Shown: positions 2,483-63,462, counted from the first letter of the stretch. The stretch is DNA of 64,000 bases from Candidatus Melainabacteria bacterium 17Bon1m (GCA_032128875.1 JAVLKG010000003.1:792974-856973), one strand, 5' to 3'. The notes: a model not told the origin generated them from the letters alone. Program-made: numbers and translations.

Positions 2483-2537
2483 TATCGATAACGATTCGGT
2501 TGCGCACATGAAATCCTGAACCGAATCGATAACGATT
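2483..2537. repeat. Two copies of dispersed palindromic element (cores 2483-2496 and 2524-2537)
   Basis: TATCGATAACGATT-CGGTT and AACCG-AATCGATAACGATT, 41 bp apart. Confidence 0.85.
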
Positions 2538-2569
2538 CGATTTCAAAAGACTGGTCAAGGGATGAAAAA

Positions 2570-3286
2570 TTATGCCGGCAGTGTGAGAGCGCGTTTGTGG
2601 GCTTGATTTTCCAGGGCGTCGTCTAGAGCATCAAGTTGGATGCTGCCATATCGTCGGCTCAAAGCTTGGGAAATAAGCTGGTCGCAAAATTGTGGATTCT
2701 TGGGCAGCAAGGAACCGTGCAAGTATGTGCCATACACTTTGCCGCTTTGCGCGCCTTCGCCGCCGTCTTCTCCATTGTTTCCATTGCCGACCACGACTTT
2801 GCCTAGTGGCTGAACATCTTTGCCAAGATATGTTTTACCGCTGTGGTTTTCGAAGCCGACAAGAGTCGTCTCGTCGCTGCGCCTGATAAGTACATTGCCG
2901 ATCATGCGTCGATTGCCGGCAACCGTGTGCGCATCGATAAGCGAAATACCTCTCAGCTCTTCGCCTTCATGAGGTTTGTAATAGTGACCAAGAAGCTGAT
3001 AGCCACCACAGATTGTGAGGAATGCAGCGCCATTGTCGACCGCGGTTTTCAATTGCTTGGCGCGCTTGACTAGATCCTGCGCAATGATTTGCTGCTGTTT
3101 GTCTTGACCGCCGCCGATAAAGTAAAGGTCGAAATATTCGGGATCAGCTTCTTGGTCCAATCCGATTGGACTAACTGTGACTTCGATATTGCGCCATTTT
3201 GCTCGTTGTGTAAGGGCGATGATATTGCCCCGGTCTCCATAAATATTGAGAAAGCGAGCGTATAAATGAGCGATACGTAATTCCAT
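2570..3286 (-). CDS. gatD: CobQ-like glutamine amidotransferase, GatD (lipid II amidation subunit)
   Basis: LNIYGDRGN, GGGQD, catalytic ICGGYQ, GFENH and YLHGS motifs typical of GatD. Confidence 0.85.
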   Translation of the reverse strand: MELRIAHLYARFLNIYGDRGNIIALTQRAKWRNIEVTVSPIGLDQEADPEYFDLYFIGGGQDKQQQIIAQDLVKRAKQLKTAVDNGAAFLTICGGYQLLGHYYKPHEGEELRGISLIDAHTVAGNRRMIGNVLIRRSDETTLVGFENHSGKTYLGKDVQPLGKVVVGNGNNGEDGGEGAQSGKVYGTYLHGSLLPKNPQFCDQLISQALSRRYGSIQLDALDDALENQAHKRALTLPA

Positions 3287-3774
3287 AAGTTGGCTCAACT
3301 GCTGAATTTGAAGTGCTGCCGACAATTCATTATAACGATGGGATTTTCTTTGCTACTAGTTAACTTACGCCCGACTTTTGATTGCACTCGGATCTCACGA
3401 GCCTGTCATCGCGCTTTCCAGTGTCTCCATATTTGATACCACCGGCGGGGCGCACCATATATAGTAGCGCGATCGCAAGAAGCTCAGTCCGATAAAAGAT
3501 CAATACCGCGGGAATATTTGAGTTCTTGATAATTGGTTGCCAGGAAATAAGGCGTGCCCTGCGTCTCGGGATTTCTAACTGATATATTTTTGGTGCCCTT
3601 CTCTTAAAATATTAGCGTTTTTTAAGCTCCGGCTTTTCGGCACCAGTCGTGGTTTTTCAACGATACTTTCAACACGTGTTTCAAATTGCACGTTTTACCA
3701 CTACTACTGACTGGAATATGTAGGCTATGATGCTTTCGTTAGATTCAGGTCATTGCGAAGGAGTGATTACTACT

Positions 3775-4338
3775 ATGAAGAAGGGGTTTGCAACCTTACT
3801 TACCGCATTAGTTGCCGTAAGTGCGAGCACCTTAGTCAATACGTCTGCTGCTTATGCGCAGGGTGCTAGTAATGTCAGCGAACTGACTGATGTTGTTGGA
3901 AATGAATGGGCATACAACGCCCTCAAGGAGCTCGTAAACAGCCCTTGCCACATCCTCGTTGGTTACCCAGACAGAACTTATCGTGGACAAAAATCCACCA
4001 CACGTTTTGAATTGGCTGCGGCGCTTTATAAATACGAACAGTGCATTACCGAAAGGCTTGCACTCAAAGCTGATAAAGCGGATTTGGAAAAATTTGCTGC
4101 CTTGTTGGAAGAGTTCCGCGGTGAACTCAACCACCTCAAGGCTCGCGTTGATAGCTTAGAAGCTAGAATGCGCGCTGTTGAAGAGAAGAATATTGAGCAA
4201 GACATGAGACTTGCTTATGCTGAGCGACAAAAGGGCTTCCTCTGGGAGCGCGTGGTAAAGGGAACAGCGATCGACGTACGTGATATTGGTGTCGGCGTGT
4301 ACCGTGGTGCACGTGGTATCTACCAATACTTGTTCTAA
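3775..4338 (+). CDS. Secreted SLH-domain plus coiled-coil protein (cyanobacterial porin/OmpM-like N-terminus, no beta-barrel)
   Basis: RBS AAGGAG, signal peptide, ELTDV..WAY.AL..LV, GYPDRTYRG, TRFELAAAL, then LLEEFRGEL..LKARVDSLEAR coiled coil. Confidence 0.8.
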   Translation: MKKGFATLLTALVAVSASTLVNTSAAYAQGASNVSELTDVVGNEWAYNALKELVNSPCHILVGYPDRTYRGQKSTTRFELAAALYKYEQCITERLALKADKADLEKFAALLEEFRGELNHLKARVDSLEARMRAVEEKNIEQDMRLAYAERQKGFLWERVVKGTAIDVRDIGVGVYRGARGIYQYLF

Positions 4339-4381
4339 GAACGAACGGATTCTCTCTACTCGCTTAGATCTGATCTACAGG

Positions 4382-4412
4382 AACTCCCGGCAGTCACATG
4401 CTGACGGGAGTT
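4382..4412 (+). terminator. Probable intrinsic terminator after SLH gene
   Basis: AACTCCCG...CGGGAGTT stem 44 nt after the stop, short T tail. Confidence 0.55.
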
Positions 4413-4499
4413 TCAGCTTAGCTATGCAAATTTGTCAAGCGAAAAGGTGAGCAATTGGCTCTCGTTGGGCACCAGCCTGGCGGCAGCTTGGATTCAAAG

Positions 4500-5300
4500 A
4501 TGGCAGCCTTCAATTTTTCGATGCCGGATGTTGAGATATCTCCTGAGCTTGCCTTTGCTCTTGATGTTTGTCGGCGTGCGGGCGAAGTTGCCATGAATCA
4601 TTTCGATCGCGATATTGCGGTTGAAGAGAAGTCCGATGGCACCCCAGTAACTGCTGCTGACAAGCAATGCGAACGCCTTATTCGTGAATCAATTGCTGAT
4701 AAATTTCCCGAGGACGCAATTCTTGGAGAAGAAGAAGGCGGCGACGATGCGCCACTTTCAAAAGGCCGTCGCTGGATAATCGACCCCATCGATGGTACTT
4801 ACAACTATGCTCGAGCCGTGCCGATTTTCTCGACTTTGCTTGCCCTTGAGAAGGACGGTGAGATTGTCTTAGGGGTTGTGTACAATCCGGCTGCCAATGA
4901 GATCTTCTGGGCAGAGAAAGGCGCAGGAGCCTTTCGGAATGGCAAAAAAATCAAGGTCTCAGAAATTTCTGAGATCAAGAATGCCCAGTTTAATTTCGGT
5001 GCTTTGAATCGCGTACAGGCAATGGGGCTCTGGGATTCTTTTGCCGAGCTTGTAAAAAATACTGTCCGCCAACGTGGATTTGGGGACTACCTCGGCTTTG
5101 CGCATGTCTTTGAGGGTAAGGCCGAAGCTCATCTAGAAGTCGGTGTGAAAGTCTGGGATCTCGCGCCCATGAAGATAATCGTTGAGGAAGCCGGCGGGCA
5201 GTTCAGCGATTTGTCGGGCGGCAAGTCTGTCTACAGAGGCAGTTGCCTGATTTCAAATGGCCTTGTGCACTCGCAATTTCTGGGCATATTAAAACGTTGA
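4500..5300 (+). CDS. hisN: Inositol monophosphatase-family protein, probable histidinol-phosphatase (HisN type)
   Basis: KSDGTPVT.AD, ILGEE, WIIDPIDGT, RGFGD, WDLAP motifs; start uncertain (4500 or 4521). Confidence 0.7.
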   Translation: MAAFNFSMPDVEISPELAFALDVCRRAGEVAMNHFDRDIAVEEKSDGTPVTAADKQCERLIRESIADKFPEDAILGEEEGGDDAPLSKGRRWIIDPIDGTYNYARAVPIFSTLLALEKDGEIVLGVVYNPAANEIFWAEKGAGAFRNGKKIKVSEISEIKNAQFNFGALNRVQAMGLWDSFAELVKNTVRQRGFGDYLGFAHVFEGKAEAHLEVGVKVWDLAPMKIIVEEAGGQFSDLSGGKSVYRGSCLISNGLVHSQFLGILKR

Positions 5301-5442
5301 TAGGCGTTGTGGGTTTCCTTTAGGCAAGCCGCATGCGGCTCCTTTTCCGGTTCTTCACTCAACGCTCTATTTCTTCTAACTGGCTAAATCAGCCAATTTT
5401 GACAACTGTCAGGGTAAAATTGCCTCTCTGAGGGAATTCTCA

Positions 5443-6645
5443 ATGCTCAAGGCCGAATGGACTAAATCAATGCGGGCGCGGATGACGCTCGTTATGTCTT
5501 TGTCCAGTGTTGTGCCTGTTGTTATTTGTCATCTCATCGTGGTCGGCACGAACGGAGCAAGGTTTAGCGATATCGTTTGGTACTTGCCTCTGATTCCGGT
5601 ACTTATCGCCATCAACTGGTTTCTTTCAGGGATCATTCTTATTCCTCTCAGGCAGCTGCTACAGGCAACAACCAAGCTGGCTAACATGGACATTCGCCAG
5701 CGGCTAGAAGTTGAGCCTAACGAGCTCTTTGAGACGGCGGAATTGCGAAAGTCTTTCAATAAATTGCTCAATCGATTGGAAGAGTCTCTCAACATTCAAT
5801 GCCAATTCGTTGCTGACGCTAGCCACGAATTGCGTACACCACTTACTTCTATTCAGGGATACACCAAACTTCTATTGCGTCGTGGACAGAGCATCGACGG
5901 GCATCTTCTAGCAGAAGCCTTGCAGACTATTTCCGATGAATCCGGTCGATTGATTCGACTGGTGTCTGACTTGTTGCAATTGGCTCGTGCAGACGCCGGA
6001 CAAGCAATAATCAATCAGCAAGAAGTTATTGACGCGCGTGATGTTCTTGCATCAGTCGAAGATACCGTCACGGTAATCGCTCCGGAGCAGATCGAAATTC
6101 AATTCATCATGCCTAGTCAGCCAATCTTTGTCTTCGCTGATAGCGACCGGCTCAAGCAAGTTTTTCTCAATCTGACAAACAATGCGATTAAGGCTACGCA
6201 GGCAGGTGGAAAAGTCACGGTTACTTTGCGCCTGAGCAACAATCAGGCGATCATCCGCGTAATTGATACCGGCATTGGTATCGCACCTGCGGACCAACAA
6301 AGAATTTTCGATCGCTTTTATAGAGTTGAGCGTTCTCGTGTGAAGAGCCGCATTTATGGCGGTGGTACCGGTCTTGGGTTGGCTATTGCTTTGACCATTA
6401 TCAAGGCACATGGCGGCAGCATTGATCTTGAAAGTGAATTGAACAAGGGCTCTACATTCACTGTTCGATTGCCTGTTGCCGACGAAAAGACCGGCAAGAG
6501 CGACACGGAAAAAAAAAGAACCGCCGAGCTGGCGAGACTGGAAGCACAGGAGAAACAGGAACGTCCGAGGGACCAAGTCCAGAAGGACCAGCGTGATCCG
6601 CAAGACAAAGTGCAACCGAAAGAAGCTCAGACAGCCGATTCCTGA
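5443..6645 (+). CDS. Sensor histidine kinase (2 TM, HAMP, HisKA, HATPase), no adjacent response regulator
   Basis: H box ADASHELRTPL, N box NLTNNA, DTGIGI, FDRFYR, GTGLGL; very short loop between TM helices. Confidence 0.9.
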   Translation: MLKAEWTKSMRARMTLVMSLSSVVPVVICHLIVVGTNGARFSDIVWYLPLIPVLIAINWFLSGIILIPLRQLLQATTKLANMDIRQRLEVEPNELFETAELRKSFNKLLNRLEESLNIQCQFVADASHELRTPLTSIQGYTKLLLRRGQSIDGHLLAEALQTISDESGRLIRLVSDLLQLARADAGQAIINQQEVIDARDVLASVEDTVTVIAPEQIEIQFIMPSQPIFVFADSDRLKQVFLNLTNNAIKATQAGGKVTVTLRLSNNQAIIRVIDTGIGIAPADQQRIFDRFYRVERSRVKSRIYGGGTGLGLAIALTIIKAHGGSIDLESELNKGSTFTVRLPVADEKTGKSDTEKKRTAELARLEAQEKQERPRDQVQKDQRDPQDKVQPKEAQTADS

Positions 6646-6708
6646 GAAACTGCAATATTCGATTCCTGAGAACCTGCAAACGTTGAGTCCTGCGGACTTC
6701 GAGTTACT
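6637..6708. repeat. Degenerate 24-bp tandem repeat x3 overlapping the kinase stop codon
   Basis: GATTCCTGAGAAACTGCAATATTC / GATTCCTGAGAACCTGCAAACGTT / GAGTCCTGCGGACTTCGAGTTACT. Confidence 0.6.
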
Positions 6709-6717
6709 TATCGGCAG

Positions 6718-6751
6718 AAAACAAAAACGCACCGCTTGAGCAGTGCGTTTT
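6718..6751 (-). terminator. Intrinsic terminator of rplY (possibly bidirectional)
   Basis: Minus strand AAAACGCACTGC-TCAA-GCGGTGCGTTTT followed by TGTTTT, between convergent genes. Confidence 0.75.
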
Positions 6752-6774
6752 CAAATTTTTCTTTCGTCGCAGAA

Positions 6775-7389: not shown

Positions 7390-7461
7390 GACCAAAAGAT
7401 CCTTATAAATACGTAAGCCTAAAGCGGACGATAAACTCCCCTCAAAACGGAGGAGTAAGAG

Positions 7462-7533
7462 CTGGGGTGCAAGGATTCGAACCTCAGAATGGCTGGACCA
7501 AAACCAGCTGCCTTACCGCTTGGCGACACCCCA
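7462..7533 (-). tRNA. tRNA-Gln(UUG), CCA not encoded
   Basis: Minus strand TGGGGTG..GCCAAGCGGTAAGGC..GCTGG-TTTTGGT-CCAGC..GGTTCGAATCC..CACCCCAG folds as a cloverleaf with TTG anticodon. Confidence 0.95.
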
Positions 7534-7552
7534 ATCTTAGCGTCGAAGGCCC

Positions 7553-7582
7553 ATTTTATTTAATAGCGCGCCATTGTGTCAA
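7553..7582 (-). promoter_or_regulatory. Sigma70-type promoter for tRNA-Gln/rplY
   Basis: TTGACA-N18-TAAAAT followed by GC-rich discriminator, about 20 nt upstream of the tRNA. Confidence 0.6.
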
Positions 7583-7653
7583 CGCCAAACGGTTAGTTTG
7601 GTTACATCCTGTGCGGGTTTCGATCGGATTTATCGAACTGGCGCCAATCGGTA

Positions 7654-9351: not shown

Positions 9352-9496
9352 GCACCGTATATAGAGTCGTATATCTTTTGTTCGCAGGAGCCGATGCCCC
9401 TACCGGCAATATCATAGCGAATTCAGATCGTCGTGCAAGACCTTTGAGTTAGGCGTTTTAAGTGACAGGTTGAAAATCCTTCGGCTTGTCTTTCAT

Positions 9497-18947: not shown

Positions 18948-19003
18948 TTCACGTCTCCTACTTTTGGGCTAATCCGGACTATTGAGAATGGGTTTTGATA
19001 GCG

Positions 19004-19017
19004 AATCGATAACGATT
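19004..19017. repeat. Dispersed palindromic element copy (between sufU and sufT)
   Basis: ATAGCG-AATCGATAACGATT-GAAT. Confidence 0.85.
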
Positions 19018-19026
19018 GAATAAAGC

Positions 19027-20704: not shown

Positions 20705-20709
20705 CGTCG

Positions 20710-24741: not shown

Positions 24742-25122
24742 CTTGTTTCTCGGTCCTTTGTGGTTTCTGTCTCGAGCCTTAAGCTCTGCCGGCCCTTTAA
24801 ATGGGATATATATCCTATCCTTTTTAAATAAGGAGCTCCTTGAGAAGGCACCTTAAACATATCAAAGTTTCGGCTGGTTGGCTTTTATAGATATAATAGT
24901 ATCAAAAATCTACCAAGTCCCGCTCGTCCTTAAGGATAGTTTTTGTAAGCTCAAATGGCGCTTTGGGACCGACCTGACTGATAACCGAGCCGGATATTTG
25001 GGGTACCGGGATAGAAGAAATCGCGAAAAGGCATTGTTGCGACACGGTTACACTAGTTACGCTTAAACTTCGACCAGATAACGATTTGACCATTTAACCA
25101 ATAGACCGATAGAACTATAGAA

Positions 25123-25767
25123 ATGATTACTCAGCCACTATCCGGAACTCCAGAGACAACTCAACAAGCCGTGCTTCTTTACTTGAAGCGCCACGGCGAG
25201 ATGACCATCGGGGAACTTTGTGACGTGCTGAATATTACGTCCATGGCCGTGAGGCGCCATATCTCCGGGCTAATGCAAGAAGGTCTGGTGCTCTCGCGCA
25301 TGGTCAAACAGTCTCGCGGGCGGCCGACTTATAAGTACAGCTTGTCTCAAAAGGCCGAATCCTTATTCCCGTCAGGGATGCAGACCCTAGCCGTCGAGCT
25401 TCTCGACATGGTTTTTGAAGAGTCCGGGCACAAGGGGGTTATGAAGCTTTTGGAGCGCCGCAATGAAAAGCGCGCCGCACGCTTGCTTTCCCGCGTGGAG
25501 GGCAAGTCGCTCGAAGATCGAGTGGTCGAAGTGACGAAGATCTTCTCGGAAGACGGTTATATGACCGAATGGGAGAAGTTGCCGGATGGCAATTTCTTCA
25601 TTTTTCAGCGCCACTGTGCGCTTCACGACCTGGCTCATAAATATCGCCAGCTTTGCGCTCTTGAGCCCCAGCTGATGGAGACTTTGCTGGGGGTTAAGGT
25701 AACGCGCGAAAAGTATATGCTGCAAAACGACCCGGTGTGCGGTTACCTGGTCAAACGGGCTGGATAG
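25123..25767 (+). CDS. sufR: SufR-type Fe-S-sensing transcriptional regulator
   Basis: N-terminal wHTH (ITSMAVRRHI, GRP..Y), C-X12-C-xxE...C ligands, divergent from sufC. Confidence 0.85.
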   Translation: MITQPLSGTPETTQQAVLLYLKRHGEMTIGELCDVLNITSMAVRRHISGLMQEGLVLSRMVKQSRGRPTYKYSLSQKAESLFPSGMQTLAVELLDMVFEESGHKGVMKLLERRNEKRAARLLSRVEGKSLEDRVVEVTKIFSEDGYMTEWEKLPDGNFFIFQRHCALHDLAHKYRQLCALEPQLMETLLGVKVTREKYMLQNDPVCGYLVKRAG

Positions 25768-49394: not shown

Positions 49395-49537
49395 CCCCTC
49401 AATTTTAGCGAATCCTAACCTTGTCTGCCGGTCATTGGGAGACCATCCTTTGGAAATTCAGGTTAGGTCGGTTGCCATGGTTATAATCTGAACCCTGAAA
49501 GTTCAAATCTGATTCGCTTTACTACGGCAAAAAAACG

Positions 49538-49551
49538 AATCGATAACGATT
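49538..49551. repeat. Dispersed palindromic element copy
   Basis: AAACG-AATCGATAACGATT-GAGTT in divergent intergenic region. Confidence 0.85.
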
Positions 49552-49601
49552 GAGTTTTCAATTCCGTAAGTGGGGTTTAGAGGGGTTTTCGAGCGTTGAG
49601 T

Positions 49602-50163: not shown

Positions 50164-53085
50164 TTGGCGGTTCTCAGTAGAAAGAATTCGATGACTGTAG
50201 CGCTACTACAAAAACTTTCAGGGGTCAGGGATTTAAGAAAAATCCTGGAAACCACGGTCAAAGAAATCGGCGAAACGTTCAACGCCGATTCTTGCCAGAT
50301 TATGGTGAGCAATCCGCTCGATCCAAATGTCACGTCAATATGCGAGTTTAAGCCTCACAAAGACGTAAAATTGCCTGACAACTTGCCGAATGTTTCGATG
50401 CCTTTGGTCATTCAAGGACGCACCTTCGGTGCCTTGAGTTTGCAAAGACGCTCTGATGTTTCACGTGACGAAGTGAATTCGATGCGTGTCGCTCTCGGGG
50501 AATTAGGCGATATCATCCGTCACGCTCAAATCAATGACGTAATTCAGCGCGATACTTTCAGAGATACATTTCTGGTCGAAATCGGCAACGTAATGGCGTA
50601 TTCGCTTGGTATAGGCGATGCACTTTTTATGGTCGTCAATATCCTTGGCAAGGTTTTGCAAGCGAGTCGCTGTTTATTTATCTGTACCGATGATGCTCAG
50701 GCTGGCTGGAAGTGCTACGAATTTTGGCAACAAGACAAGGTTCAAAGCTGCCAGGATTATTATTGGCCGACCACCCATTCGCCGCTCATAGCGCAAGTTC
50801 TGCTCAGCAAAACGCCTCTTAAGGTTTTTGAGGGACAACTGAATTCTTATGCTTCGCCGGTGCAGGACGAACTGCAACTGATTAGCGTGAAGTCATTGCT
50901 GGGCATTCCGCTGCGCACTGCCAATGCGACTCACGGTTGTGTCATTCTGCAACAGTGCGATTATCGTCGGGCATGGACGCGCGGCGAACTCGATATGGTG
51001 CAAAATGTCGCAGACAAGGTTGCAGAAGCACTACTTAAATTGCCTGCTGAAAAGCGTGCCCGTGAGCCTATCATGCAGCTTCACCAGCGGGTTGTGCAAG
51101 ATACAGCGCCCGGCGAAAAAGCTTCGATTGGCACGGTTCGTAATGCTCTAAAGGGCGCACTCGGAGCACAAGCTATTCCGTCGGCGCGAAAAACATCGCA
51201 GCAATCTGTGCCGGCGCAGGCAAAGGCAGCGGCCGCTTCTACACCAGCTCCAGCGCCTCCGCCACCAGCACCTACGCCACCGGCACCACCGACTCCGATT
51301 CCACAACCATCTACGCCTCCTGCACCGCAACTATCTGCGCCTCCCGCTCCTGCACCGGTTGCGCAAGCTCCGGTGGCGCCAGCATCGCCACCACCTGCGC
51401 CACCACCTGCGGCGCCGATGTCCGAGACCGCACCTCCAACATCTACAGACATTCCGGCTCCGACAATCACTCCCGTTGTGCGTGGTCAAGGTGCTCCGCA
51501 ATCGCCGGCAGGATCTGCCGCAGGCAATGCGTTCAGCAACATATTGGAGCCGCCACCGGCAACCGCAACTGCCGATGTCCTGCCGATAAGCCCGGAAGAA
51601 ATTCTCACTAAAACTGCAGATCTTACCGATCAGCTGGGCGAAATCAAAGCGAAAGACCCTTACGCAGACATCGATTTTGGGGAATTTGTCGAGCCAGCGG
51701 ATTTTTCGCCGCCAGCTACTGAAACACAAGCGCTCCCGCCTGTTGACGTAGCAGCTGCTGCCCAAGCGCCTGTAGTGGCTCAACCTGCAGAACAAGCGCC
51801 TCTGCCTAACTCAGTTGCGCCGACGCCAGAAGTTGCACAGGCTGCGCCGCCAGCTCAAGAAATGGCTGCATCGTCAACTGCTGAAACAATTTCAGCTCCG
51901 GACCTAGCGCCAGCGCAAGAGCCTGCACCCGCACCCGCAGCTACACCCGCACCCGCACCCGCACCCGCACCTGCGCCCGCACCCGCACCTGCGCCCGCAC
52001 CCGCACCCGCACCCGCGCCTACACCTACACCTGCACCTGCTGCAACTCCTGAAGTGGCGGCGGCACCTGTCAGTGCAGAGTCTGCTGCAACAGCAGAAGC
52101 GGAAGCTCCTGGTGGATGGGGTAATCTTGACGCTATTCCAACACCAAAAGCGGCGCCGGCAGCAGCGCAGGCTCCCAGTGCGTGGGGCGATTTAGATTCG
52201 ATTCAAACACCCAAGGCAGCGGCGAATGCAGCACCCGGGGCTGGTTTGCGTGGCAAGCTCGGCAAGGGCAAGGCTCCGAGTCCCGCCGCTCAGGGTAGCG
52301 CTTTGCTCGCGTCGATGCACAAGGATAAGTCTCAGTTCAAGCCTCAGGAACCAGCGTCTGCGCCAGTGCAGGAAGCCAAACCTGAATTTGTCCAGGGACC
52401 GCCGATAGAAATTGATGAAGCAAAAGCCCAAGCGAAATTGCAAGAAATTCTCTCGTCAGCTAATCCGACAAGTGACTATATCTTCGCCACGCCCGGTCTT
52501 GACGCTCGTATGTTGGGCCGTATAGACGGCTGGGTTTCGCAAATCGAAGCCAAAGACAAATATTTGAACGGGCATGCGCGTCAGGTTGCCGAGTATTCGG
52601 TAGCGATTGCAAAAGGAATAGGGCTGGATGAAGAAGCGCAGAATCTTGTGCGGCAGGTGGCTCTTGTCCACGATGTCGGCAAGCTGGGTGCTGCAGCTCC
52701 CATCCTGCAAAAACGCGAAGAAGAATTACATGATTCAGAATTGATCACTGTGATGCGTCACCCGATCGACGGGGCCGAACTTCTCGAGTCGTTCCCCGAC
52801 TTGGCGCACCTGGCGCCGATCGTGAGGGCACACCACGAGGAATACAATGGAGAAGGGTTCCCTGCCGGCTTGAAAGAAAATGAAATTCCGATCGAAGCGC
52901 GCATAATTTGTCTCGCCAATGCTTATCACAACATGGTGAGCGACATGCGCTATGGACCTGGCATGGATCCTCAAGAAGCGCAGGCTGAAATTACCCGCGG
53001 GGCTGGACGCCAGTGGGATCCGACTCTCGTTCAGGCGTTTTTGCAGTGTTTGCAAAGTGGCGTAGTACCTGCAAAACATAGCTGA
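50164..53085 (+). CDS. GAF-GAF-(Pro/Ala linker)-HD-GYP-like signalling protein
   Basis: GAF motifs (GCVILQQC...RAW...E), GH..V, VHDVGK, HHEEYNGEGFP, GRQWDP; RBS GAGGGG before TTG. Confidence 0.85.
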   Translation: MAVLSRKNSMTVALLQKLSGVRDLRKILETTVKEIGETFNADSCQIMVSNPLDPNVTSICEFKPHKDVKLPDNLPNVSMPLVIQGRTFGALSLQRRSDVSRDEVNSMRVALGELGDIIRHAQINDVIQRDTFRDTFLVEIGNVMAYSLGIGDALFMVVNILGKVLQASRCLFICTDDAQAGWKCYEFWQQDKVQSCQDYYWPTTHSPLIAQVLLSKTPLKVFEGQLNSYASPVQDELQLISVKSLLGIPLRTANATHGCVILQQCDYRRAWTRGELDMVQNVADKVAEALLKLPAEKRAREPIMQLHQRVVQDTAPGEKASIGTVRNALKGALGAQAIPSARKTSQQSVPAQAKAAAASTPAPAPPPPAPTPPAPPTPIPQPSTPPAPQLSAPPAPAPVAQAPVAPASPPPAPPPAAPMSETAPPTSTDIPAPTITPVVRGQGAPQSPAGSAAGNAFSNILEPPPATATADVLPISPEEILTKTADLTDQLGEIKAKDPYADIDFGEFVEPADFSPPATETQALPPVDVAAAAQAPVVAQPAEQAPLPNSVAPTPEVAQAAPPAQEMAASSTAETISAPDLAPAQEPAPAPAATPAPAPAPAPAPAPAPAPAPAPAPAPTPTPAPAATPEVAAAPVSAESAATAEAEAPGGWGNLDAIPTPKAAPAAAQAPSAWGDLDSIQTPKAAANAAPGAGLRGKLGKGKAPSPAAQGSALLASMHKDKSQFKPQEPASAPVQEAKPEFVQGPPIEIDEAKAQAKLQEILSSANPTSDYIFATPGLDARMLGRIDGWVSQIEAKDKYLNGHARQVAEYSVAIAKGIGLDEEAQNLVRQVALVHDVGKLGAAAPILQKREEELHDSELITVMRHPIDGAELLESFPDLAHLAPIVRAHHEEYNGEGFPAGLKENEIPIEARIICLANAYHNMVSDMRYGPGMDPQEAQAEITRGAGRQWDPTLVQAFLQCLQSGVVPAKHS
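51922..52042 (+). repeat. 6-bp coding tandem repeat (GCACCC/GCACCT/GCGCCC) encoding poly(Pro-Ala)
   Basis: About 20 hexamer units, PAPAPA run in the protein. Confidence 0.9.
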
Positions 53086-54376: not shown

Positions 54377-54519
54377 GCATCGATGCGGTCGAAACGTCGC
54401 TCCCATGCCGCGAATTGCCCAAGCACTCGCTGGTGCATCGACGCGCCGAAATATCGGCGGGTCACAAACCCAAGATCTTAATCTTGGCATGCGACCAAAA
54501 CTTCCGCCACCGGGCGGAA
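54377..54519 (-). promoter_or_regulatory. Structured 5' leader of rpsA (four hairpins)
   Basis: Stems at 54502-54519, 54460-54496, 54444-54459 and 54378-54443. Confidence 0.6.
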
Positions 54520-54525
54520 ACGTAC

Positions 54526-54555
54526 AATATAAGACAACGTGCGCAAGGACTTCAA
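54526..54555 (-). promoter_or_regulatory. Probable sigma70 promoter of rpsA
   Basis: TTGAAG-N18-TATATT just upstream of the first leader hairpin. Confidence 0.45.
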
Positions 54556-55036
54556 GGTTATGTATTGAGGTTTAGAGGAACCTTTAGACTTGCTTTATAG
54601 TTCGTCGCTAATCTGTATCCCTCTTATGCCGCGCAGGAGCCTGTTTCCGGGCGTTTCCTAGAAGCTTAAACGACGCCGCGGTAAAACCCTCCCTTATCCT
54701 CTATTTATCTAAATCCCTGCAACTTTTCTCAATTTTTCTATCAGAAGCACCGAATTTTTTCGAAACTCTCGGTCATTTTTCTCCACATTTGATTTCAAGT
54801 TGGACTTTTGAAATTGGAAAACGTGCCGTTAATGTATCTCTTGGCTTCTGGTTTTTGGAAGATTCCAACCTCTCTATATGCAAACGGGTCGAAAACCGAT
54901 CAAAAGTATTCGCGCTGTAGATCTGTCGGATAGCCTGATTTTGTGAGCTTTTTCATAGTTGCGCGCTAACCTTAAACACGACATATAATTTTCTCGTTCC
55001 GTTGTTCATCAAGGTTTTGACAGGCGAGGCAAGCAA

Positions 55037-55543: not shown

Positions 55544-55580
55544 ACCGAAAGGTTTGAGTCGTCAGGCAAAAGAAAATCGT

Positions 55581-56318: not shown

Positions 56319-56600
56319 TGCTTTTACTTCAGGGATTCCAAAAAGAACTATTTGATCTAACCAATATTTTTACTTACAAGCACCCTCGTCTTGAATACTT
56401 GAGAGATAGAAGAACTATTTTTGTTAACCATTGTTGCATGCGTAGTCCGATTATGCCCATGCCTGCTGGGTTTGAATGCCGCGGCGAAGACAAAAAACGG
56501 AGATAGTCAAGTATTTCTGTCGCTGAAGACCGGGCTCCAGTCATAAAGGTCGGTTCGTTTTTCTTCTTGAAATTTTTGCCAGCTTTCAAAAAAAAGATTG

Positions 56601-56642
56601 AATCGTTATCGATTGAGTTCTTATAGCGAATCGTTATCGATT
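56601..56642. repeat. Two copies of dispersed palindromic element (56601-56614 and 56629-56642)
   Basis: AATCGTTATCGATT-GAGTTCTTATAGCG-AATCGTTATCGATT, 28-bp period. Confidence 0.9.
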
Positions 56643-56893
56643 GGGTTTTTTGAAGTGATGAGTGCCGCTTGGCTTCGCGGAAGCTGAGCGGTAGTAATCA
56701 AGTATTGAGCAAAATTCAAGGTAGGTCTAAAACCGCTACACGTGCCTAATTTGTGTTCTCTAAAGCTAATTTCAACTCGCTTCTTACGTGCCTATAATCT
56801 AGTTACAGTGCGGCGTTATGTCAGGCCTGATATGCTTTACGGGGCGGTGAAAATGACCGCCGATTGCCAGAAATATTCGGCTCGGGGATAGCG

Positions 56894-57286
56894 ATGTATC
56901 AACTTCAGTTGGCGCAGATTGCCTTGTTTGTTCTGATGGGCTTTGCCCTTCCGGCGCTTGGAATGATCTTGCTTGCTTGGATCTTGCAGCTCATGTTCGG
57001 TTATCACAGACCGTCGAAGACCAAGATTCAGCCTTACGAATGCGGCATGAAGCCTCTGCAAGAAGCTCATGTGCAGTTTGATATTCGCTACTACCTGTAT
57101 GCGCTTCTCTTTATTCTTTTCGATATCGAAATCGTATTCATCATTCCCTGGGCTCTGGCAACCGACCAGGTCGGCAAAGCACTCAATTTCAAGATGTTTG
57201 GACCTATCGAAGTAACGATATTCCTTTCCATTCTGGTAGTTGGACTTGCATACGCCTGGAAAAAGGGCGCTCTTGAGTGGGAGTAA
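56894..57286 (+). CDS. ndhC: NADH:quinone oxidoreductase subunit A (NdhC)
   Basis: PYECG, RYYLYALLFILFDIE, AWKKGALEWE. Confidence 0.95.
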   Translation: MYQLQLAQIALFVLMGFALPALGMILLAWILQLMFGYHRPSKTKIQPYECGMKPLQEAHVQFDIRYYLYALLFILFDIEIVFIIPWALATDQVGKALNFKMFGPIEVTIFLSILVVGLAYAWKKGALEWE

Positions 57287-57292
57287 TGATCG

Positions 57293-57982
57293 ATGGCAGA
57301 TAGTGACGTCCAGGGCATGAACGAAGTCCCTGATGAATTGAAAGACACAGTCACGCTGACAACGCTTGAAAAAATGATTGAAGCGATGGGTGATTTATTG
57401 TCGCCTGTAGTCAGCCCTATTGCCAATGCGGCTCGCTCGAATTCAGTTTGGCCTTTGACATTCGGCACTTCGTGTTGCGCTATCGAGATGATGTCAGTCG
57501 GGATGTCGAAATTCGATATCTCTAGATTCGGCTCTGAAGTTTTTCGCGCTACTCCGAGACAGGCGGACATGATCATTACCGCCGGTACAATTACTCGCAA
57601 AATGGCGCCGGCTTTGATCACTCTTTATGAACAAATGCCTGAGCCTAAGTACGTAATTGCCATGGGCGCATGCACCGTGACTGGCGGCATGTTCAACGAT
57701 TCTTATTCTGTAGTGCAAGGTGTTGACCGCGTTATTCCGGTCGACATTTATTTGCCTGGCTGCCCTCCTCGTCCGGAAGGCATTCTTGATGCACTTCTCA
57801 AGCTGCAACAAAAAATTCGTACTGAGTCTTACGCCGAGCGCAAGAAAAAACGGTACAGACAAAATGCGGTACGCCAAGTCGATTACGATACCGGACGTCC
57901 GCTTGAAGACTTGATCGATGAAGCTAGATTCGAAACCGCTCTAGCGCTTGATCCGCTCAAGAGTCTTCAAGAAAAGGCGTAA
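57293..57982 (+). CDS. ndhK: NADH:quinone oxidoreductase subunit B (NdhK)
   Basis: [27 protein letters not shown]. Confidence 0.95.
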
Positions 57983-58016
57983 TTGCAAACCACAGCAGAT
58001 AACAAGGGACTTCGAA

Positions 58017-58553
58017 ATGTCAGAGACACCAGCCGCAAAACCGCCCGAGGAGCCTAAAGGCCCGGGACTCTGTGGGCAGTTTTTGAAAGATCACGGAATT
58101 GCTACAAACCGCTTGGCTGATTCATGCGGTGTGGAGACCATCGAAATTGACGGCGCTCATCTGGAAGCCGCGATGAAGCTGCTGCGCGGATCTTCCGAGA
58201 TTAAGCTCGACTATCTCGTAGCCGTTAGTGGTGTCGACAGTGCTGACACTTTTGATTCGGTTTATCAACTTTGGTCATATACCAATAACAATGAGTTGAT
58301 TATCAAAGTCAGAGTCAAGAAGACAGATGTGGTGGAAGGGCAATTGCCGCTGGTTCCTTCCCTTTCGCGCTTCTGGAGCGCAGCCAACTGGCACGAACGC
58401 GAAACTTACGATCTTGTTGGAATTCGTTATTACGGCCATCCATATTTAAGACGCATTCTCAACGTTTGGGATTGGGACGGTCATCCATTGCGCCGCGATT
58501 ACAAGCAGCTGGTTGATTCGCTCAATGACAAGGCTCCCGGCAGTTTCCGCTGA
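58017..58553 (+). CDS. ndhJ: NADH:quinone oxidoreductase subunit C (NdhJ)
   Basis: ANWHERETYDLVGI, GHP.LRRI, GHPLRRDY. Confidence 0.92.
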   Translation: MSETPAAKPPEEPKGPGLCGQFLKDHGIATNRLADSCGVETIEIDGAHLEAAMKLLRGSSEIKLDYLVAVSGVDSADTFDSVYQLWSYTNNNELIIKVRVKKTDVVEGQLPLVPSLSRFWSAANWHERETYDLVGIRYYGHPYLRRILNVWDWDGHPLRRDYKQLVDSLNDKAPGSFR

Positions 58554-58584
58554 GCGCCGATTTACTTATTAGAGGCAAGGACCA

Positions 58585-59724
58585 ATGGCAACGGACACAG
58601 AAGTCGATCTGACACCCAGGCTAAAAACAGACGAGATGCTCATCAACATGGGCCCTCAGCACCCGGCAACACACGGTGTGCTGCGTTTGATTCTTACCCT
58701 GGACGGCGAAATCGTTCGTCATACCGAGCCCATCCTTGGTCACCTTCACAGAGCTCAAGAATGGCAGGGACAGAATCGCACCTGGTTCCAATACCAAGCC
58801 TTAATCGACCGAGTCGACTATCTTTCCGGCATGTTTACTTCCTGGGCAATGGCTCGCGCGGCTGAAGTCGTAGATGGTTGCGAAGTTCCCGAACGCGCTG
58901 AATACCTGCGCGTAATGGTTTCAGAAATGAACCGCATCACTTCGCACTTACTCTGGTTAGGCACTTATTTGATCGACTTGGGCGCGATGTTTGGTTTTCC
59001 TTTCTATCCTTTCCGTGAAAGAGAGAAGCTGCTCGAACTCTTTGAAGAAATTGCCGGTCAACGCATGATGTTCAACTACATCAGAATTGGCGGCGTCATG
59101 CGCAATCCGAAGGATGCCTGGCTTTCCAAGCTGAAGAAGTTCACAGAAGAGTTTCCTGATCGTGTTGATGAATACGAGGCCATCGTTACTGAGAACCCGA
59201 TCTTCTTGAAACGTACAAAAGGCATCGGCATTCTCAGAAAAGAGCTGGGCATGGATTACGGAATTACCGGTCCATCTATTCGCGCCTCGGGCGTTGATAT
59301 CGACTTGCGCCGCACCAAACCTTATTCGGTTTATCCGAAACTTAAATTCGATGTTCCGGTCAACGACCGCGACGGCGATACATTCGACAGATACATTTTC
59401 CGCATTCGCGAAATGAGACAGTCCAACGAGATCATCAAACAGTGTCTCGATATGTTGCCGCAAGGCGAAATTTCCGGCAAGAAACAAATCGCCGGTTTGC
59501 GCGTAAAAGCCGGTGAAGGTTTTGCTGCTGTCGAATCACCGCGCGGAACTCTCGGTTGCTACATCATCTCGAATGGCTCCGATAGAGCTTACAGAATCAA
59601 GTGGCGCAATCCGTCGTTCTGCAACCTTTCGATTTTGCCAGAACTTCTGAAGAACCACCCAATTGCCGACGTAATGGCAATTTTCGGTTCAATCGACGTA
59701 ATTCTGCCCGACGTAGACCGCTAA
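58585..59724 (+). CDS. ndhH: NADH:quinone oxidoreductase subunit D (NdhH)
   Basis: NMGPQHPATHGVLRL, RVDY, ESPRG, DVDR end; no NiFe CxxC motifs. Confidence 0.95.
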   Translation: MATDTEVDLTPRLKTDEMLINMGPQHPATHGVLRLILTLDGEIVRHTEPILGHLHRAQEWQGQNRTWFQYQALIDRVDYLSGMFTSWAMARAAEVVDGCEVPERAEYLRVMVSEMNRITSHLLWLGTYLIDLGAMFGFPFYPFREREKLLELFEEIAGQRMMFNYIRIGGVMRNPKDAWLSKLKKFTEEFPDRVDEYEAIVTENPIFLKRTKGIGILRKELGMDYGITGPSIRASGVDIDLRRTKPYSVYPKLKFDVPVNDRDGDTFDRYIFRIREMRQSNEIIKQCLDMLPQGEISGKKQIAGLRVKAGEGFAAVESPRGTLGCYIISNGSDRAYRIKWRNPSFCNLSILPELLKNHPIADVMAIFGSIDVILPDVDR

Positions 59725-59824
59725 AAATCATATTGGACCGGTGAGAAACTCCCTGGTATCGCTAGTAAAGAATGCTCTCTGTTAGAAAACCCATCTCCTT
59801 AGAACAAGGACAGCTTTTAGAATC

Positions 59825-61279
59825 ATGAGAAACGGCGCCGAAATTTTGAAACTTGGAACGCTCACCTTCACCTGGTGGTGCATCATATTCGGTGCGGTCT
59901 GGATTGCCTGCTACGTGGTTGGTGTGGCAATTCCAATGCTGCTCTCGTCTTATGAAAGTGATGCTGCAAGAATCACAGCCGAAACATGCAGAGCACTGAC
60001 ACCAATTCTTTCGGTGCTGGTTTTTATTCCGATTAACGCGATGTTCATGGTGCTTTTCGAAAGAAGAGGACTGGCAATTTTCACAGTTCGTCTGGGACCA
60101 AACAGAGTCGGTCCTGATGGCTATCTACAAACAGCCGCAGACGCCGTCAAACTTCTTTTCAAAGAAGACATCACTCCTCACGGAGCGGATGCTTTCATGT
60201 TCACATTGGCTCCAATCGTGTTTTTTGCTCCATCAATTTTTGGAGCGATGCCGCTTCTGGCTGCTGTCACCAATTATCACGAGCTCTTCCAGATCGTTAA
60301 TTTGCCCACCGGGATTTTCTTCATCCTGGCTGCGTCATCGGTTCCGGTTGTTGGAATTGTGATGGGCGGTTGGGCCAGCAACAATAAATACTCGCTTGTG
60401 GGTGGATTGCGCTCTGCCGCTCAAGCAATCAGTTATGAAATTCCGCTTGTACTCTCGCTTGTGACCGTATGCTTGCTGGCAGGCAGCTTAGATGTTGTCG
60501 AAATCATGAAGCAACAAGCTGGAGGAATTCTCAACTGGAACATCCTGGGTGGCGGTGCTCTTCGTGGTCTTGATTCCGCTCTGGCACTGAAATTCTCCAA
60601 TGCTGCGCCAGCGCTGCAAGAACTCTCTGCTAAATCTTTTGACCAAGTTCTCAAAACTGCCTACAGCGATCCAGCTGCTGCTGCCCTCGGTCTTGCGGCC
60701 GGTCAGGATTCGATGGCTACAATCGCTTCAGTTATTGCTGTTGTAGTTCTTATGGCTTGCGTTTTAATCGCTGCCGGTCTTTATATGACTGGCGCCTGCG
60801 CTGAAATCAACCGCATTCCTTTCGATTTGCCGGAAGCCGAATCTGAACTTGTAAGTGGATATAACACCGAGTACAGCGGCATCAAATTCGCTATCTTCTT
60901 CTTGGCTGAATTCACTAACTTGTTCGTGGTCGCTTCGATTTTTGTCGTGATGTTCCTGGGCGGGGGTGACTGCCCTGTGCCTGCTTGGCTCGGTAATATG
61001 CTGGGCGGACCGCAAATGGCGAGCGCTATCAATCAGTTACTCTCTCCACTCATTGCTATCAAATTTGTAGATCCACCTACTTTATTTGCAGCAATCTGGG
61101 TAATCCTCAAGGTTTACGGCATCGTATTTTTCGCAGTCCTTGTTCGTGGCACCTTGCCTCGTTTCCGCATCGACCAGCTTATGGATTTTGGCTGGAAGCG
61201 TTTGATTCCGTTGTCTCTCATCGTTTTCGTGTTGGTTGTCTTTGCAAGGGAGTTCGTAAACGTTCATGTTGGGTCTTAG
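59825..61279 (+). CDS. ndhA: NADH:quinone oxidoreductase subunit H (NdhA), enlarged
   Basis: RLGPNRVGP, GWASNNKYSL.GGLRSAAQ.ISYE, PFDLPEAESELV.GY.TEYSG, PRFRIDQ. Confidence 0.93.
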   Translation: MRNGAEILKLGTLTFTWWCIIFGAVWIACYVVGVAIPMLLSSYESDAARITAETCRALTPILSVLVFIPINAMFMVLFERRGLAIFTVRLGPNRVGPDGYLQTAADAVKLLFKEDITPHGADAFMFTLAPIVFFAPSIFGAMPLLAAVTNYHELFQIVNLPTGIFFILAASSVPVVGIVMGGWASNNKYSLVGGLRSAAQAISYEIPLVLSLVTVCLLAGSLDVVEIMKQQAGGILNWNILGGGALRGLDSALALKFSNAAPALQELSAKSFDQVLKTAYSDPAAAALGLAAGQDSMATIASVIAVVVLMACVLIAAGLYMTGACAEINRIPFDLPEAESELVSGYNTEYSGIKFAIFFLAEFTNLFVVASIFVVMFLGGGDCPVPAWLGNMLGGPQMASAINQLLSPLIAIKFVDPPTLFAAIWVILKVYGIVFFAVLVRGTLPRFRIDQLMDFGWKRLIPLSLIVFVLVVFAREFVNVHVGS

Positions 61280-62141
61280 TTTAGTTACACGCGCCAAAGA
61301 CAGCTTCTATCAAATCTATCGCGGTTTGAAAACAGTAGCTATGCACACGTTTCGTGAGCCGATCACGCAAGTCTATCCGGACCAGATGCCGGATACGCAT
61401 ATAAGAGGAAGATTGGCGCTTGCTGTCAATCCTGAATCCGGCGAGCACCTCTGTATCTCTTGTCGCCAGTGCGAGAGAGTTTGTCCTGATAAGTGCATTG
61501 AAATCACTGCACACAAGAGTCCGGAAACAAGCAAATTGGAATTGATCGATTTCAAAATTGATCACGGGCTTTGCATGTTCTGTGGTTTGTGCACCGAGGT
61601 CTGCCCAACCAGTTGCATTATCAATACCAATGATTTTGAAATGTCCGAGTACAGCCGCGAGGCTCTTGTGTACGATTTGCGCAAGCTGACTTTGAGTCAA
61701 GAAGAGTCGGGATACTATTTCGACCGTAAAGAAATTCCGCTGCCGAAGCCTAAACCGGCCAAAGCCGCCCCAGCCGCCGGCGCCGCTGCCGGTGCTGCAA
61801 AACCAGCTGCCGCTGCTGGAGCTGCCGCAGCCGGAGCTGCCGCCGCCGCGAAACCAGCCGCACCGGCTTCTGCAGCAAAACCTGCTGAAGGCGGTGAAGC
61901 AAAACCAGTAGAAGCTGCAAAACCAGCGGATGCTGCAAAACCGGCTGATGCTGCAAAACCGGCAGAAGCTGCAAAACCGGCAGAAGCAAAAGCTGATGCA
62001 GAAACTAAACCTGCTGCAGAAACTAAGCCGGCAGAAGCTAAGGAAGAAAAGAAATCTGACGCCGCAGAGAGCAAAGACAAACCTGCGGAAGAAAAGAAAG
62101 AAGCAGAGAAGAAGGAAGGCGAAGACAAGCCGAAAGAATAA
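61266..62141 (+). CDS. ndhI: NADH:quinone oxidoreductase subunit I (NdhI) with Ala/Lys/Pro/Glu repeat tail
   Basis: CISCRQCERVCP and CMFCGLCTEVCP 2x[4Fe-4S] motifs; AAKP repeats. Confidence 0.93.
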   Translation: MLGLSLVTRAKDSFYQIYRGLKTVAMHTFREPITQVYPDQMPDTHIRGRLALAVNPESGEHLCISCRQCERVCPDKCIEITAHKSPETSKLELIDFKIDHGLCMFCGLCTEVCPTSCIINTNDFEMSEYSREALVYDLRKLTLSQEESGYYFDRKEIPLPKPKPAKAAPAAGAAAGAAKPAAAAGAAAAGAAAAAKPAAPASAAKPAEGGEAKPVEAAKPADAAKPADAAKPAEAAKPAEAKADAETKPAAETKPAEAKEEKKSDAAESKDKPAEEKKEAEKKEGEDKPKE

Positions 62142-62181
62142 TCGGCTGCACAATTGTTTTGAGGAGTGAGGACAGGGAATT

Positions 62182-62796
62182 ATGGAACAGTTTGAGATGC
62201 TCAAAGCGCTGGCTGAGACCAATGTAGAGAGCTTTATGTTCTACATTCTGGCTACTATCTCCATCCTTCTTGCGTATGGGGTCATTCTGGATAGAACAAT
62301 TATCCGTAGCGGTTTTATTTTGATCGGTGTGTTCGGTTCTATTTGCGGTTTGTTCTTACTCTTGCAAGCGCAGTTCCTCGCACTTGCACAGCTGATGATT
62401 TATGCAGTCGGCATTACCCTTGTAATCGTAATTGCGCTGATGTTGACCAATCCGCGCATGGAAAAGTCTCAGCTGAGCACCGCAGCTCCCGCCAATCAGC
62501 TTGGCGCGTTTATGGTGGCAGTTGGTCTATTCATGACTATCTACCTTTCTGTAAGACCTGAAAATTGGACGCTCAGCAGTGAACCACTTGATATGAATAA
62601 TGTTCAAGTCTTAGGTCGTGCGTTGACGACTGATTACTCGCTGCCTTTTGAATTTGCATCTGTTTTGCTGTTGGCTGCACTGATTGGAGCTGTGATGCTG
62701 GCGAAAGCTGAGAAACCGCCGAAACCAGGCGAAGAAGATTTTGAATACTCGGTGGTAGAAGATTCTGCCGCAGAGCCCGTCGCGTCAAAGAGGTAA
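62182..62796 (+). CDS. ndhG: NADH:quinone oxidoreductase subunit J (NdhG)
   Basis: [26 protein letters not shown]. Confidence 0.92.
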
Positions 62797-62801
62797 TAAG
62801 G

Positions 62802-63410
62802 ATGACTAGCTCAGTGGCAACCAAGTCCCAATCTCCAGTTCAAGCAATGTCTTACGCATTGGCTTATGCGATCGCGGTGTGTTTCGTTGTTGGAGCCTAT
62901 GCGACTGGGAATCTCGACAATTTCGTAAGTATGACCGGACTCAGTTCTGTACTTGAGTCCTGGGCGCTAAAGGATTACACAGAACTTCTCGCCTTTGTTC
63001 TTATCGTGCTTCTTGGCTCAACGGTTGCGCTATTGGGCGGACAGACATCCATCATTATGGCTGTAGGAACGGTGGGTAGTTTCTTTGCACTAACTCTCAA
63101 CCAGCATCCTTTGATTCAGTACTTGAGCCTCGCAGCAGTTCTTTTCGCTATTGGGCTTTACGGCATGGTTGTTTCGCGCAATGCCGTAAGGGTGCTAATG
63201 GCAATTGAGTTGATGCTGAACGCGGTCAACATCAATTTGGTTGCCTTTGCTCGTTATGTTGATCCGGTTCAAGTAAAAGGACAATTGTTCGCCATCTTCG
63301 TAATTACAGTTGCAGCCGCTGAAGCTGCAGTTGGACTAGCAATCGTTCTTTCCATCTACAGAAATACATCTACCGTTGATATGGAAAGATTCAACCTTCT
63401 CAAGTGGTAA
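62802..63410 (+). CDS. ndhE: NADH:quinone oxidoreductase subunit K (NdhE) with about 100-aa N-terminal membrane extension
   Basis: C-terminal half: [36 protein letters not shown]. Confidence 0.9.
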
Positions 63411-63438
63411 TTCTAAATTTCACCGTATAGTTTCGTTG

Positions 63439-63462
63439 AACCGAATCGTTATCGATTCGGTT
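63439..63462. repeat. Dispersed palindromic element, perfect 10-bp arms; may act as terminator after ndhE
   Basis: AACCGAATCG-TTAT-CGATTCGGTT followed by TTT. Confidence 0.9.

Follow-up and report, generated by a model that had tools for sequence, protein, structure and literature searches.

A previously undescribed palindromic repeat confined to intergenic spacers in a 64-kb stretch of a melainabacterial genome

The stretch of DNA analysed here, hereafter the window, comprises 64,000 nucleotides of Candidatus Melainabacteria bacterium 17Bon1m (GCA_032128875.1, JAVLKG010000003.1:792974-856973) and carries a short palindromic repeat, the 14-bp core of which, AATCGATAACGATT, occurs in six exact copies and in one further copy with a single mismatch. 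With genes called as the longest open reading frames (ORFs) and named with NCBIfam (56 ORFs) and Pfam (25 of these), the copies fall into five loci, three of them spacers between tandem genes and two of them spacers between divergent genes. The neighbours are gatD, the pair sufU/sufT, a Nudix gene together with an ATPase cluster, the pair rnc/nuoA, and nuoK together with a gene that looks transposase-derived. The seven copies, with cores starting at 2483, 2524, 19004 and 49538 on the plus strand and at 56601, 56629 and 63444 on the minus strand, are as follows (flank scores are leave-locus-out).

Copy 1, 2477..2502, plus strand: core 2483-2496, TATCGATAACGATT, a single mismatch from the core; flank score 5.4.
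Copy 2, 2518..2543, plus strand: exact core 2524-2537; flank score 10.4.
Copy 3, 18998..19023, plus strand: exact core 19004-19017; flank score 1.0.
Copy 4, 49532..49557, plus strand: exact core 49538-49551; flank score 7.9.
Copy 5, 56595..56620, minus strand: exact core 56601-56614; flank score 6.4; an A8 run on the outer side.
Copy 6, 56623..56648, minus strand: exact core 56629-56642; flank score 11.7; a T6 run on the outer side.
Copy 7, 63438..63465, minus strand: exact core 63444-63457; flank score 14.9.

The palindromic repeat is real, non-random and, in the window, strictly intergenic. At up to one mismatch, 0.01 occurrences of the core are expected from dinucleotide shuffles, and none of 100 shuffles gave seven, which bears out the seven positions claimed in an earlier note on this DNA. 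The relaxed pattern AATCGNNNNCGATT (AATCG-N4-CGATT) retrieves the same six exact copies and no others (0.15 expected); the centre of all six is ATAA/TTAT, and a variant with a symmetric centre was not found in the window by this search. Among the seven copies the core shows one difference in 98 positions. There are no copies with two mismatches in the window, nor does the 12-mer ATCGATAACGAT occur there outside the copies, and the matches with three mismatches (nine on both strands, at eight places, besides the copies) are at chance level (5.72 +/- 2.83 expected) and have background-like flank scores of -3 to -25. One of these three-mismatch matches, at 25073-25086 (flank score -8.1), is the supposed partial copy at 25077 upstream of sufR, which is accordingly no longer counted with the repeat. 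Within the window, the palindrome family is all-or-none. Its copy density is roughly one per 9 kb, and its words are the most over-represented 8-mers of the window under a third-order Markov model, second to coding tandem repeats.

Spacers make up 6848 of the 64,000 bases (10.7% of the window) and contain all seven copies, in agreement with the earlier observation that no copy lies inside a coding sequence; the chance of finding five of five loci in spacers is 0.107^5, or about 1e-5. The 14-mer is not intrinsically intergenic, since 103 of 116 occurrences in other genomes, among the matches listed, sit inside open frames of at least 100 codons. The gene labels given earlier were also right in substance: two loci follow gatD and nuoK (= ndhE) on their 3' sides, one separates sufU from sufT, and two occupy divergent spacers.

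Copies 1 and 2 form a doublet 3' of gatD (2570-3325, minus strand), with core starts 41 nt apart; copy 2 begins 32 nt past the gatD stop and copy 1 is the gatD-distal member. Together they can form a long imperfect hairpin (2470-2550 as minus-strand RNA, -23.2 kcal/mol, z -2.9). In the same 482-bp spacer a terminator-like hairpin, CTCAGCG...CGCTGAG followed by T6, lies at 2192-2211 on the minus strand, about 270 nt beyond the doublet and before the next gene; it is overlapped by a 66-aa ORF (2155-2355, minus strand), which may be an unannotated small gene or small RNA. Copy 3 lies inside the suf operon, 9 nt past the sufU stop and 56 nt ahead of the sufT start, and has a stem of 5 bp only (-2.9 kcal/mol, z -0.2). 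Copy 4 stands between two divergent genes, on the minus strand the one that opens a DUF4129/DUF4350/MoxR-like ATPase/DUF58 cluster and on the plus strand, 44 nt away, that of a Nudix hydrolase; it is bordered by A7 and T4 and folds at -11.3 kcal/mol on the plus and -14.1 kcal/mol on the minus strand.

Copies 5 and 6 form a second doublet (core starts 28 nt apart); the spacer in which it lies, 545 bp long, separates the divergent genes rnc and nuoA. The plus strand of this region (56585-56660) folds at -18.5 kcal/mol (z -2.5), the rnc sense at only -9.1 kcal/mol (z -1.7). Read by eye, the sequence ahead of nuoA contains a promoter-like TTCAAC-N16-TATAAT, which the scan of this region did not flag; the doublet lies about 150-190 nt upstream of it. 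The longest spacer of the window, also divergent (54466-55036, 571 bp), is without an annotated feature, repeat copy or Rfam match. Copy 7 is found 33 nt past the nuoK stop and 108 nt ahead of the next gene. Of the seven copies it is the best palindrome (AACCGAATCG/CGATTCGGTT); T5 follows it on the plus strand, and it is predicted to form an 11-bp stem followed by U5 (-17.9 kcal/mol, z -4.8).

The host is, by its proteins, a melainabacterium of Obscuribacterales, a non-photosynthetic relative of cyanobacteria rather than a typical cyanobacterium: the 90%-identity cluster mates of RecN, SufB, SufC, NuoD, RNase III and the SufR-like protein are named Candidatus Melainabacteria, Obscuribacterales or Obscuribacter, and cyanobacterial expectations therefore apply loosely. 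A scan of a genome collection (596 Gb) with the bare 14-mer gave at least 120 occurrences, a single one in each of the 120 genomes listed; the chance matches estimated for 596 Gb, a few thousand, are well above those listed. One occurrence (L013) comes from Candidatus Obscuribacter phosphatis, of the same order as the host; the 14-mer there lies in the spacer between divergent genes, some 125 nt ahead of one whose product combines a LexA DNA-binding and an S24 peptidase domain. Complementary outer arms (AACG/CGTT) accompany it, and its flanks, ranking 20 of 119 on the window profile, do not fit; it is therefore a possible relative only. Two unrelated genomes of other phyla (L007 and L092) carry the 14-mer, by coincidence, as the tip of a long perfect hairpin with A- and T-runs beside it; an ordinary terminator readily accommodates a palindrome of this kind.

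Searches of plasmids and phages with a 43-nt query returned chance-level pieces only. The plasmid search gave 294 records, mostly an 18-nt exact match to copy 7 (63443-63460) at one unannotated spot of enterobacterial plasmids; the best match is at least 99% identical in 291 of the 294, the inspected example is an IncF-type Escherichia coli plasmid (L121, 1501-1518), and the match is taken as a chance match in a shared backbone place. Eight spurious ORFs spanning the copies had no counterpart in the protein collection. Neither the 14-mer nor its reverse complement was found in the literature searched (one collection of papers, in which no such element turned up either for Obscuribacter with palindromes or for Melainabacteria with HIP1). 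Two 12-nt sub-words turn up coincidentally in four papers, one with a list of mycobacterial Zur boxes, one on fly dynein and two on quinolone resistance in Staphylococcus epidermidis. A Zur box, the sole bacterial binding site among these, was rejected as an identity for the repeat: the 12-mer lies inside one box of the list (PMC4298942), the Zur consensus differs, and the overlap is a coincidence. As the earlier note had supposed, the element is not a described one, with no Rfam family and no match in the literature searched; it is a previously undescribed, spacer-only palindromic repeat of a melainabacterium.

Outside the core, the copies resemble one another more loosely. In an alignment of eight copies (the seven of the window and that of Ca. 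Obscuribacter phosphatis, giving 16 half-sites), a soft, two-fold symmetric flank consensus extends the unit to about 26 bp, AAAMYS-AATCGATAACGATT-SRKTTT, with A at -4 in 14 of the 16 half-sites, A at -5 in 12, Y at -2 in all 16 and S at -1 in 14. Leave-locus-out, the window copies score 1.0-14.9 on this profile, whereas 119 foreign occurrences of the 14-mer average -11.6 (sd 7.3) and reach 6.7 at most. The commonest base at the consensus-defining flank positions reaches 56-88%, and this compares with a single difference in the 98 core positions, which suggests selection, or continual correction, of the core. Three flank hexamers, GAACTC, GAACCG and ATAGCG, each recur twice, and the left flank of the copy at 19004 and the right flank of that at 56629 agree in 14 of 20 positions (P ~0.005, against the maximum of 120 random spacer pairs). 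Two other assignments were tried and rejected. A miniature inverted-repeat transposable element extending beyond the unit was sought by local alignment of 60-nt flanks, in which the best pair scored 19 and the 99th percentile of the null was 21. For a promoter of the extracytoplasmic-function type (GAAC-N16-CGNT), the 'spacer' is invariant and the 'hexamers' are degenerate, the reverse of what a promoter shows.

The symmetry of the unit does not translate into a shared hairpin. In a formal test of a 15-pair stem, standard pairs fill 66.7% of the cells; exchanging the 3' sides at random between copies gives 64.4 +/- 2.3%, and 96 of 500 such shuffles reach the observed figure. The covariation score is 0.157, versus 0.119 shuffled (47 of 500 as high). 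Pairing is what a symmetric consensus leads one to expect, so that the hairpin is not the shared property, and the duplex sequence is. The position adjacent to the core is complementary in only two of the eight copies, and the predicted RNA folds range from -2.9 kcal/mol (z -0.2) at 19004 to -17.9 kcal/mol (z -4.8) at 63444, the doublets folding as imperfect hairpins of 25-30 bp. A terminator scan of the copy regions flagged none of the copies. At the gathering threshold of Rfam a tRNA is the sole match in the window, and at E <= 5 one match covers a copy, a chance-level U6 hit at 63360-63459 (19.2 bits, gathering 44, E 3.2). Ordinary G+C-rich terminator-like hairpins are also present in the organism. 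A hairpin-based repetitive extragenic palindromic (REP) sequence, terminator or RNA element as the common denominator of the copies is not supported. Of the claim that the arms reach about 24 bp, the symmetric flank consensus has stood and good base-pairing has been found in only two or three copies; of the suggested likeness to a REP repeat, the restriction to spacers has stood, whereas several copies lack a stable hairpin, pairing is not in excess and there is no GTAG tail.

The explanation that accounts best for these observations, and which is adopted here tentatively, is that of a lineage-specific, copy-propagated extragenic palindrome, the invariant core of which would be the recognition site, as duplex DNA, of a putative protein. 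One ancestral sequence would have given rise to all copies, through duplication or insertion into non-coding DNA and not by independent origin, and they would be kept only where genes stay unbroken. The core would be held letter-perfect, while the arms drift, by a sequence-specific protein that reads it as duplex DNA; candidate readers are a two-fold symmetric binder and a transposase-like enzyme acting in trans. Hairpin formation is not the selected property, as the absence of covariation shows, and a copy with well-paired arms and a U-run, such as copy 7 after nuoK, probably also acts as a terminator or 3' stabiliser of the transcript. A common source of the copies is argued for by the invariant asymmetric centre, the all-or-none distribution, the recurring flank hexamers and the flank pair with 14 of 20 identities.

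A number of observations weigh against copy propagation. Nothing beyond the 26-bp unit is common to the copies, which counts against simple copying, and symmetric soft flanks without covariation are equally expected of a protein site evolved in situ. The flank pair shared by 19004 and 56629 has its centre in opposite orientation, so that a further inversion must be assumed for descent from one unit; the doublets differ from replicative units of the REPIN type in that their spacers are unrelated and unequal in length; and no target-site duplication was seen by eye at the copies. No Y1/RAYT transposase, the enzyme to be looked for beside REP sequences, was found among the 56 ORFs of the window with NCBIfam or, for 25 of them, Pfam. 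Two of the five loci are divergent promoter spacers, which are unusual places for the classical REPs of E. coli and Pseudomonas. The word 'dispersed' is based on 64 kb of sequence, and among the matches listed in the genome scan the same order is represented by one row in 120, that of Ca. Obscuribacter phosphatis; were the listed rows a fair sample, this would speak against exact copies by the hundred in many related genomes.

The main rival, possible in our judgement but rather unlikely, is in-situ evolution of the sites as targets of a nucleoid-associated protein or global regulator, a dimer with 5-4-5 half-sites binding AATCG-N4-CGATT; many spacers would have a site, A-tract flanks would aid bending, and occupancy would shape transcription boundaries or the nucleoid. 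The two-fold symmetry of the flank consensus, which is informative in each half-site independently, is in keeping with such a dimer, as are pairing without excess over symmetry and the weak hairpins of several copies; the doublet distances of 28 and 41 bp could allow cooperative binding, every locus is upstream of at least one gene start, and in Ca. Obscuribacter phosphatis the 14-mer lies upstream of lexA in a divergent spacer. However, an invariant asymmetric centre is unexpected for a symmetric dimer with independently evolved sites, the gradient of degenerate sites that would accompany them is absent from the window, and the flank hexamers recur. The tandem-spacer copies, moreover, lie close to the upstream stop (9-33 nt) and further from the next start (56-395 nt), and at the gatD doublet a terminator-like hairpin separates the repeat from the next gene. 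That same proximity to stops invites a reading at the level of RNA, as an intrinsic terminator, 3'-end stabiliser or site of processing (by RNase III, for instance, at the doublets), which is considered unlikely. In the mRNA sense the centre is UUAU at three of three tandem-spacer loci, copy 7 has the stem, U5 and folding energy of a terminator, at least five T follow the UUAU orientation at 63444, 49538 and 56629 and in Ca. Obscuribacter phosphatis, and one of the doublets, with their hairpins of 25-30 bp, is upstream of rnc. Yet three of three is not significant, stop proximity is a trend only (Fisher P 0.068), the T-run is absent at copies 19004, 2483 and 2524 and is joined by a co-oriented upstream gene only at 63444, and the two divergent loci have no co-oriented upstream gene at all. 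The shuffles show no pairing above symmetry, the folds of copy 3 and of the rnc-sense doublet are weak, the terminator scan passed over all copies although ordinary terminator-like hairpins exist besides, and termination does not explain an identical 14-nt apex.

It is very doubtful that the repeat serves a single regulon (iron-sulfur, redox or stress) as its operator, or that it is a LexA box of divergent kind. Four copies adjoin suf and nuo genes, the Nudix (MutT-like) gene has a copy 44 nt upstream, the gene downstream of the Ca. Obscuribacter phosphatis copy is lexA, and the 5-4-5 geometry resembles that of the Gram-positive LexA box. Position is the sole basis of the iron-sulfur or redox site offered earlier as an alternative, and the promoter spacer between sufR and sufC (which holds a three-mismatch match with background flanks), the region upstream of apbC and the 145-bp spacer upstream of recN are all free of copies, so that an iron-sulfur/redox or SOS operator is disfavoured. 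The copy in suf separates sufU from sufT, that after nuoK stands at the end of the nuoA-K run, the nuoA doublet is far upstream of the promoter-like site read by eye, and the gatD doublet adjoins no iron-sulfur, redox or stress gene. A LexA box in particular was rejected, the recN upstream region being copy-free and the Ca. Obscuribacter phosphatis site lying about 100 nt upstream of a promoter-like site, also read by eye. The genes next to the copies share no functional theme; a single-regulon operator is therefore the weaker reading, as the earlier note had argued, and, a local hot spot apart, a density of five loci in 64 kb is much higher than a small regulon would give. The least probable of the explanations is a role in chromosome organisation, like that of parS, Noc-binding sites or KorB operators, with a ParB-like or similar protein on a regional cluster. 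Letter-perfect, all-or-none conservation and clustering within 64 kb are in its favour, and if the rows listed in the genome scan were a fair sample, copies would be few genome-wide and the window a hot spot. Against it, the parS consensus as generally known has two matches at three mismatches (0.39 expected) and none better, the window has no cluster of dnaA boxes (by the commonly known motif) and no dnaA, dnaN or parAB genes, and the reversal in the orientation of copies from 49.5 to 56.6 kb does not reach significance, there being five loci. Sites of the parS and Noc kinds, besides, are not known to be confined to spacers.

A candidate for a protein acting on the core, as a lead only, is encoded by the gene following copy 7.

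Gene after nuoK, 63566-64000, running off the window: full length 342 aa (P0004), beginning 108 nt past copy 7.

The 342-aa protein is conserved, with relatives of equal length (85% and 61% identical) among proteins of metagenome-assembled genomes (MAGs) of Melainabacteria/Obscuribacterales. It contains a DprA-type winged helix (PF17782, E 4.5e-13) and a Cys-rich N-terminal region, which we take to be a zinc ribbon of the IS1595 type; the similarity of its C-terminal part to IS1595 transposases is weak (E 0.0087 and 0.014, both below the cut-off), and its structure model is poor (mean pLDDT 40.7). Judged from these domains, the protein looks like a domesticated transposase derivative and is plausibly a DNA binder, of a family other than Y1/RAYT. 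Its link to the repeat is adjacency only, and a DNA-binding protein among the neighbours is unsurprising, because there are ten neighbouring genes. It would be a long shot to extend this to a global, hitherto undescribed DNA-binding system of Obscuribacterales, in which the palindrome would be the site recognised and a domesticated transposase, putatively the protein encoded past copy 7, would with its former ends have been recruited to organise the genome, marking the boundaries of transcription units at hundreds of spacers.

Elsewhere in the window, the complex I cluster (56864-63410) is nuoABCDHIJK, without nuoEFG and with nuoK not followed by nuoL. The NuoI (61266-62141) and NuoK (62802-63410) ORFs are far longer than the family models; the true start of NuoK is probably later, since the family match covers residues 102-202 only. 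One coding tandem repeat, with an 18-nt unit GCAAAACCRGC... (61797-61987), lies in the C-terminal extension of the NuoI ORF, and another (51895-52068), GCACCC-rich with units 12 and 18 nt apart, encodes a Pro/Ala-rich segment of a 973-aa GAF/HD-domain protein. The SufR-like regulator (25123-25767) scores 109.3 bits against a cyanobacterial SufR cut-off of 178.8, and its cluster mates are named MarR or ArsR family. The suf cluster also has sufU and sufT, an arrangement typical of Gram-positive bacteria.

Melainabacteria are uncultured or barely cultured relatives of the cyanobacteria, the regulation and organisation of whose genomes are nearly uncharted, and the palindrome offers a concrete handle on both. 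The core duplex is usable as bait for a binding protein, and presence or absence of copies among many near-identical MAGs can show mobility. If the palindrome marks transcript ends, operon annotation in melainabacteria would improve; if it is just another REP-like family, its value would be modest, in strain typing and assembly diagnostics.

Several known systems share features with the repeat. Operators of the CRP/FNR type and of Gram-positive LexA have the same 5-4-5 half-site geometry; their arm sequences differ, the four-base spacer is here invariant and asymmetric, and neither the positions relative to promoters nor the gene set fits a regulon. The KorB operators (OB) of IncP plasmids, and sites of the ParB type, are likewise perfect short palindromes that recur within some 60 kb, mostly between genes and at varied distances from promoters. 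The window, in contrast, has the gene content of a chromosome, with nuo, suf, recN, rpsA and pyk as core genes; it showed no ParB-like gene, and the sequence is unrelated to parS. The DNA uptake sequences and dRS3 elements of Neisseria share an exact short core, soft flanks and an all-or-none distribution, with terminator-like inverted pairs frequent at gene ends; the uptake sequences, however, are not palindromes, have roughly a tenfold higher density and often lie within genes.

HIP1, GCGATCGC, is also a palindrome over-represented in the cyanobacterial lineage, and its core likewise contains CGAT. It measures 8 bp and abounds within genes; as its sequence is different and it occurs only three times in the 64-kb window, the repeat is rightly held not to be HIP1. 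A HIP-like octamer, AATCGATT, was considered and rejected as a counterpart: it occurs six times (5770, 9241, 13305, 33287, 45823 and 48564), always inside ORFs, and is not in the top 12 palindromic octamers by the third-order Markov model. The 7-mer AATCGAT is found 32 times in the window, where 11.25 are expected.

A further parallel is with the REP sequences and BIMEs of enterobacteria and pseudomonads, which, like the repeat described here, are short extragenic palindromes, single or in doublets, often after stop codons, present in operons and without a link to gene function. Compared with these, the core of the melainabacterial repeat is A+T-rich, 14 bp long and most conserved at the apex rather than at the base of the stem; the stems are weak in several copies, with pairing that is not in excess, and the spacers of the doublets are unrelated. 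A tetranucleotide of the GTAG type is a defining feature of REP sequences, whereas here the flanks are AAAMYS and SRKTTT, without a GTAG/GTGG-type tail. The palindrome is thus REP-like in its distribution, not in its structure.

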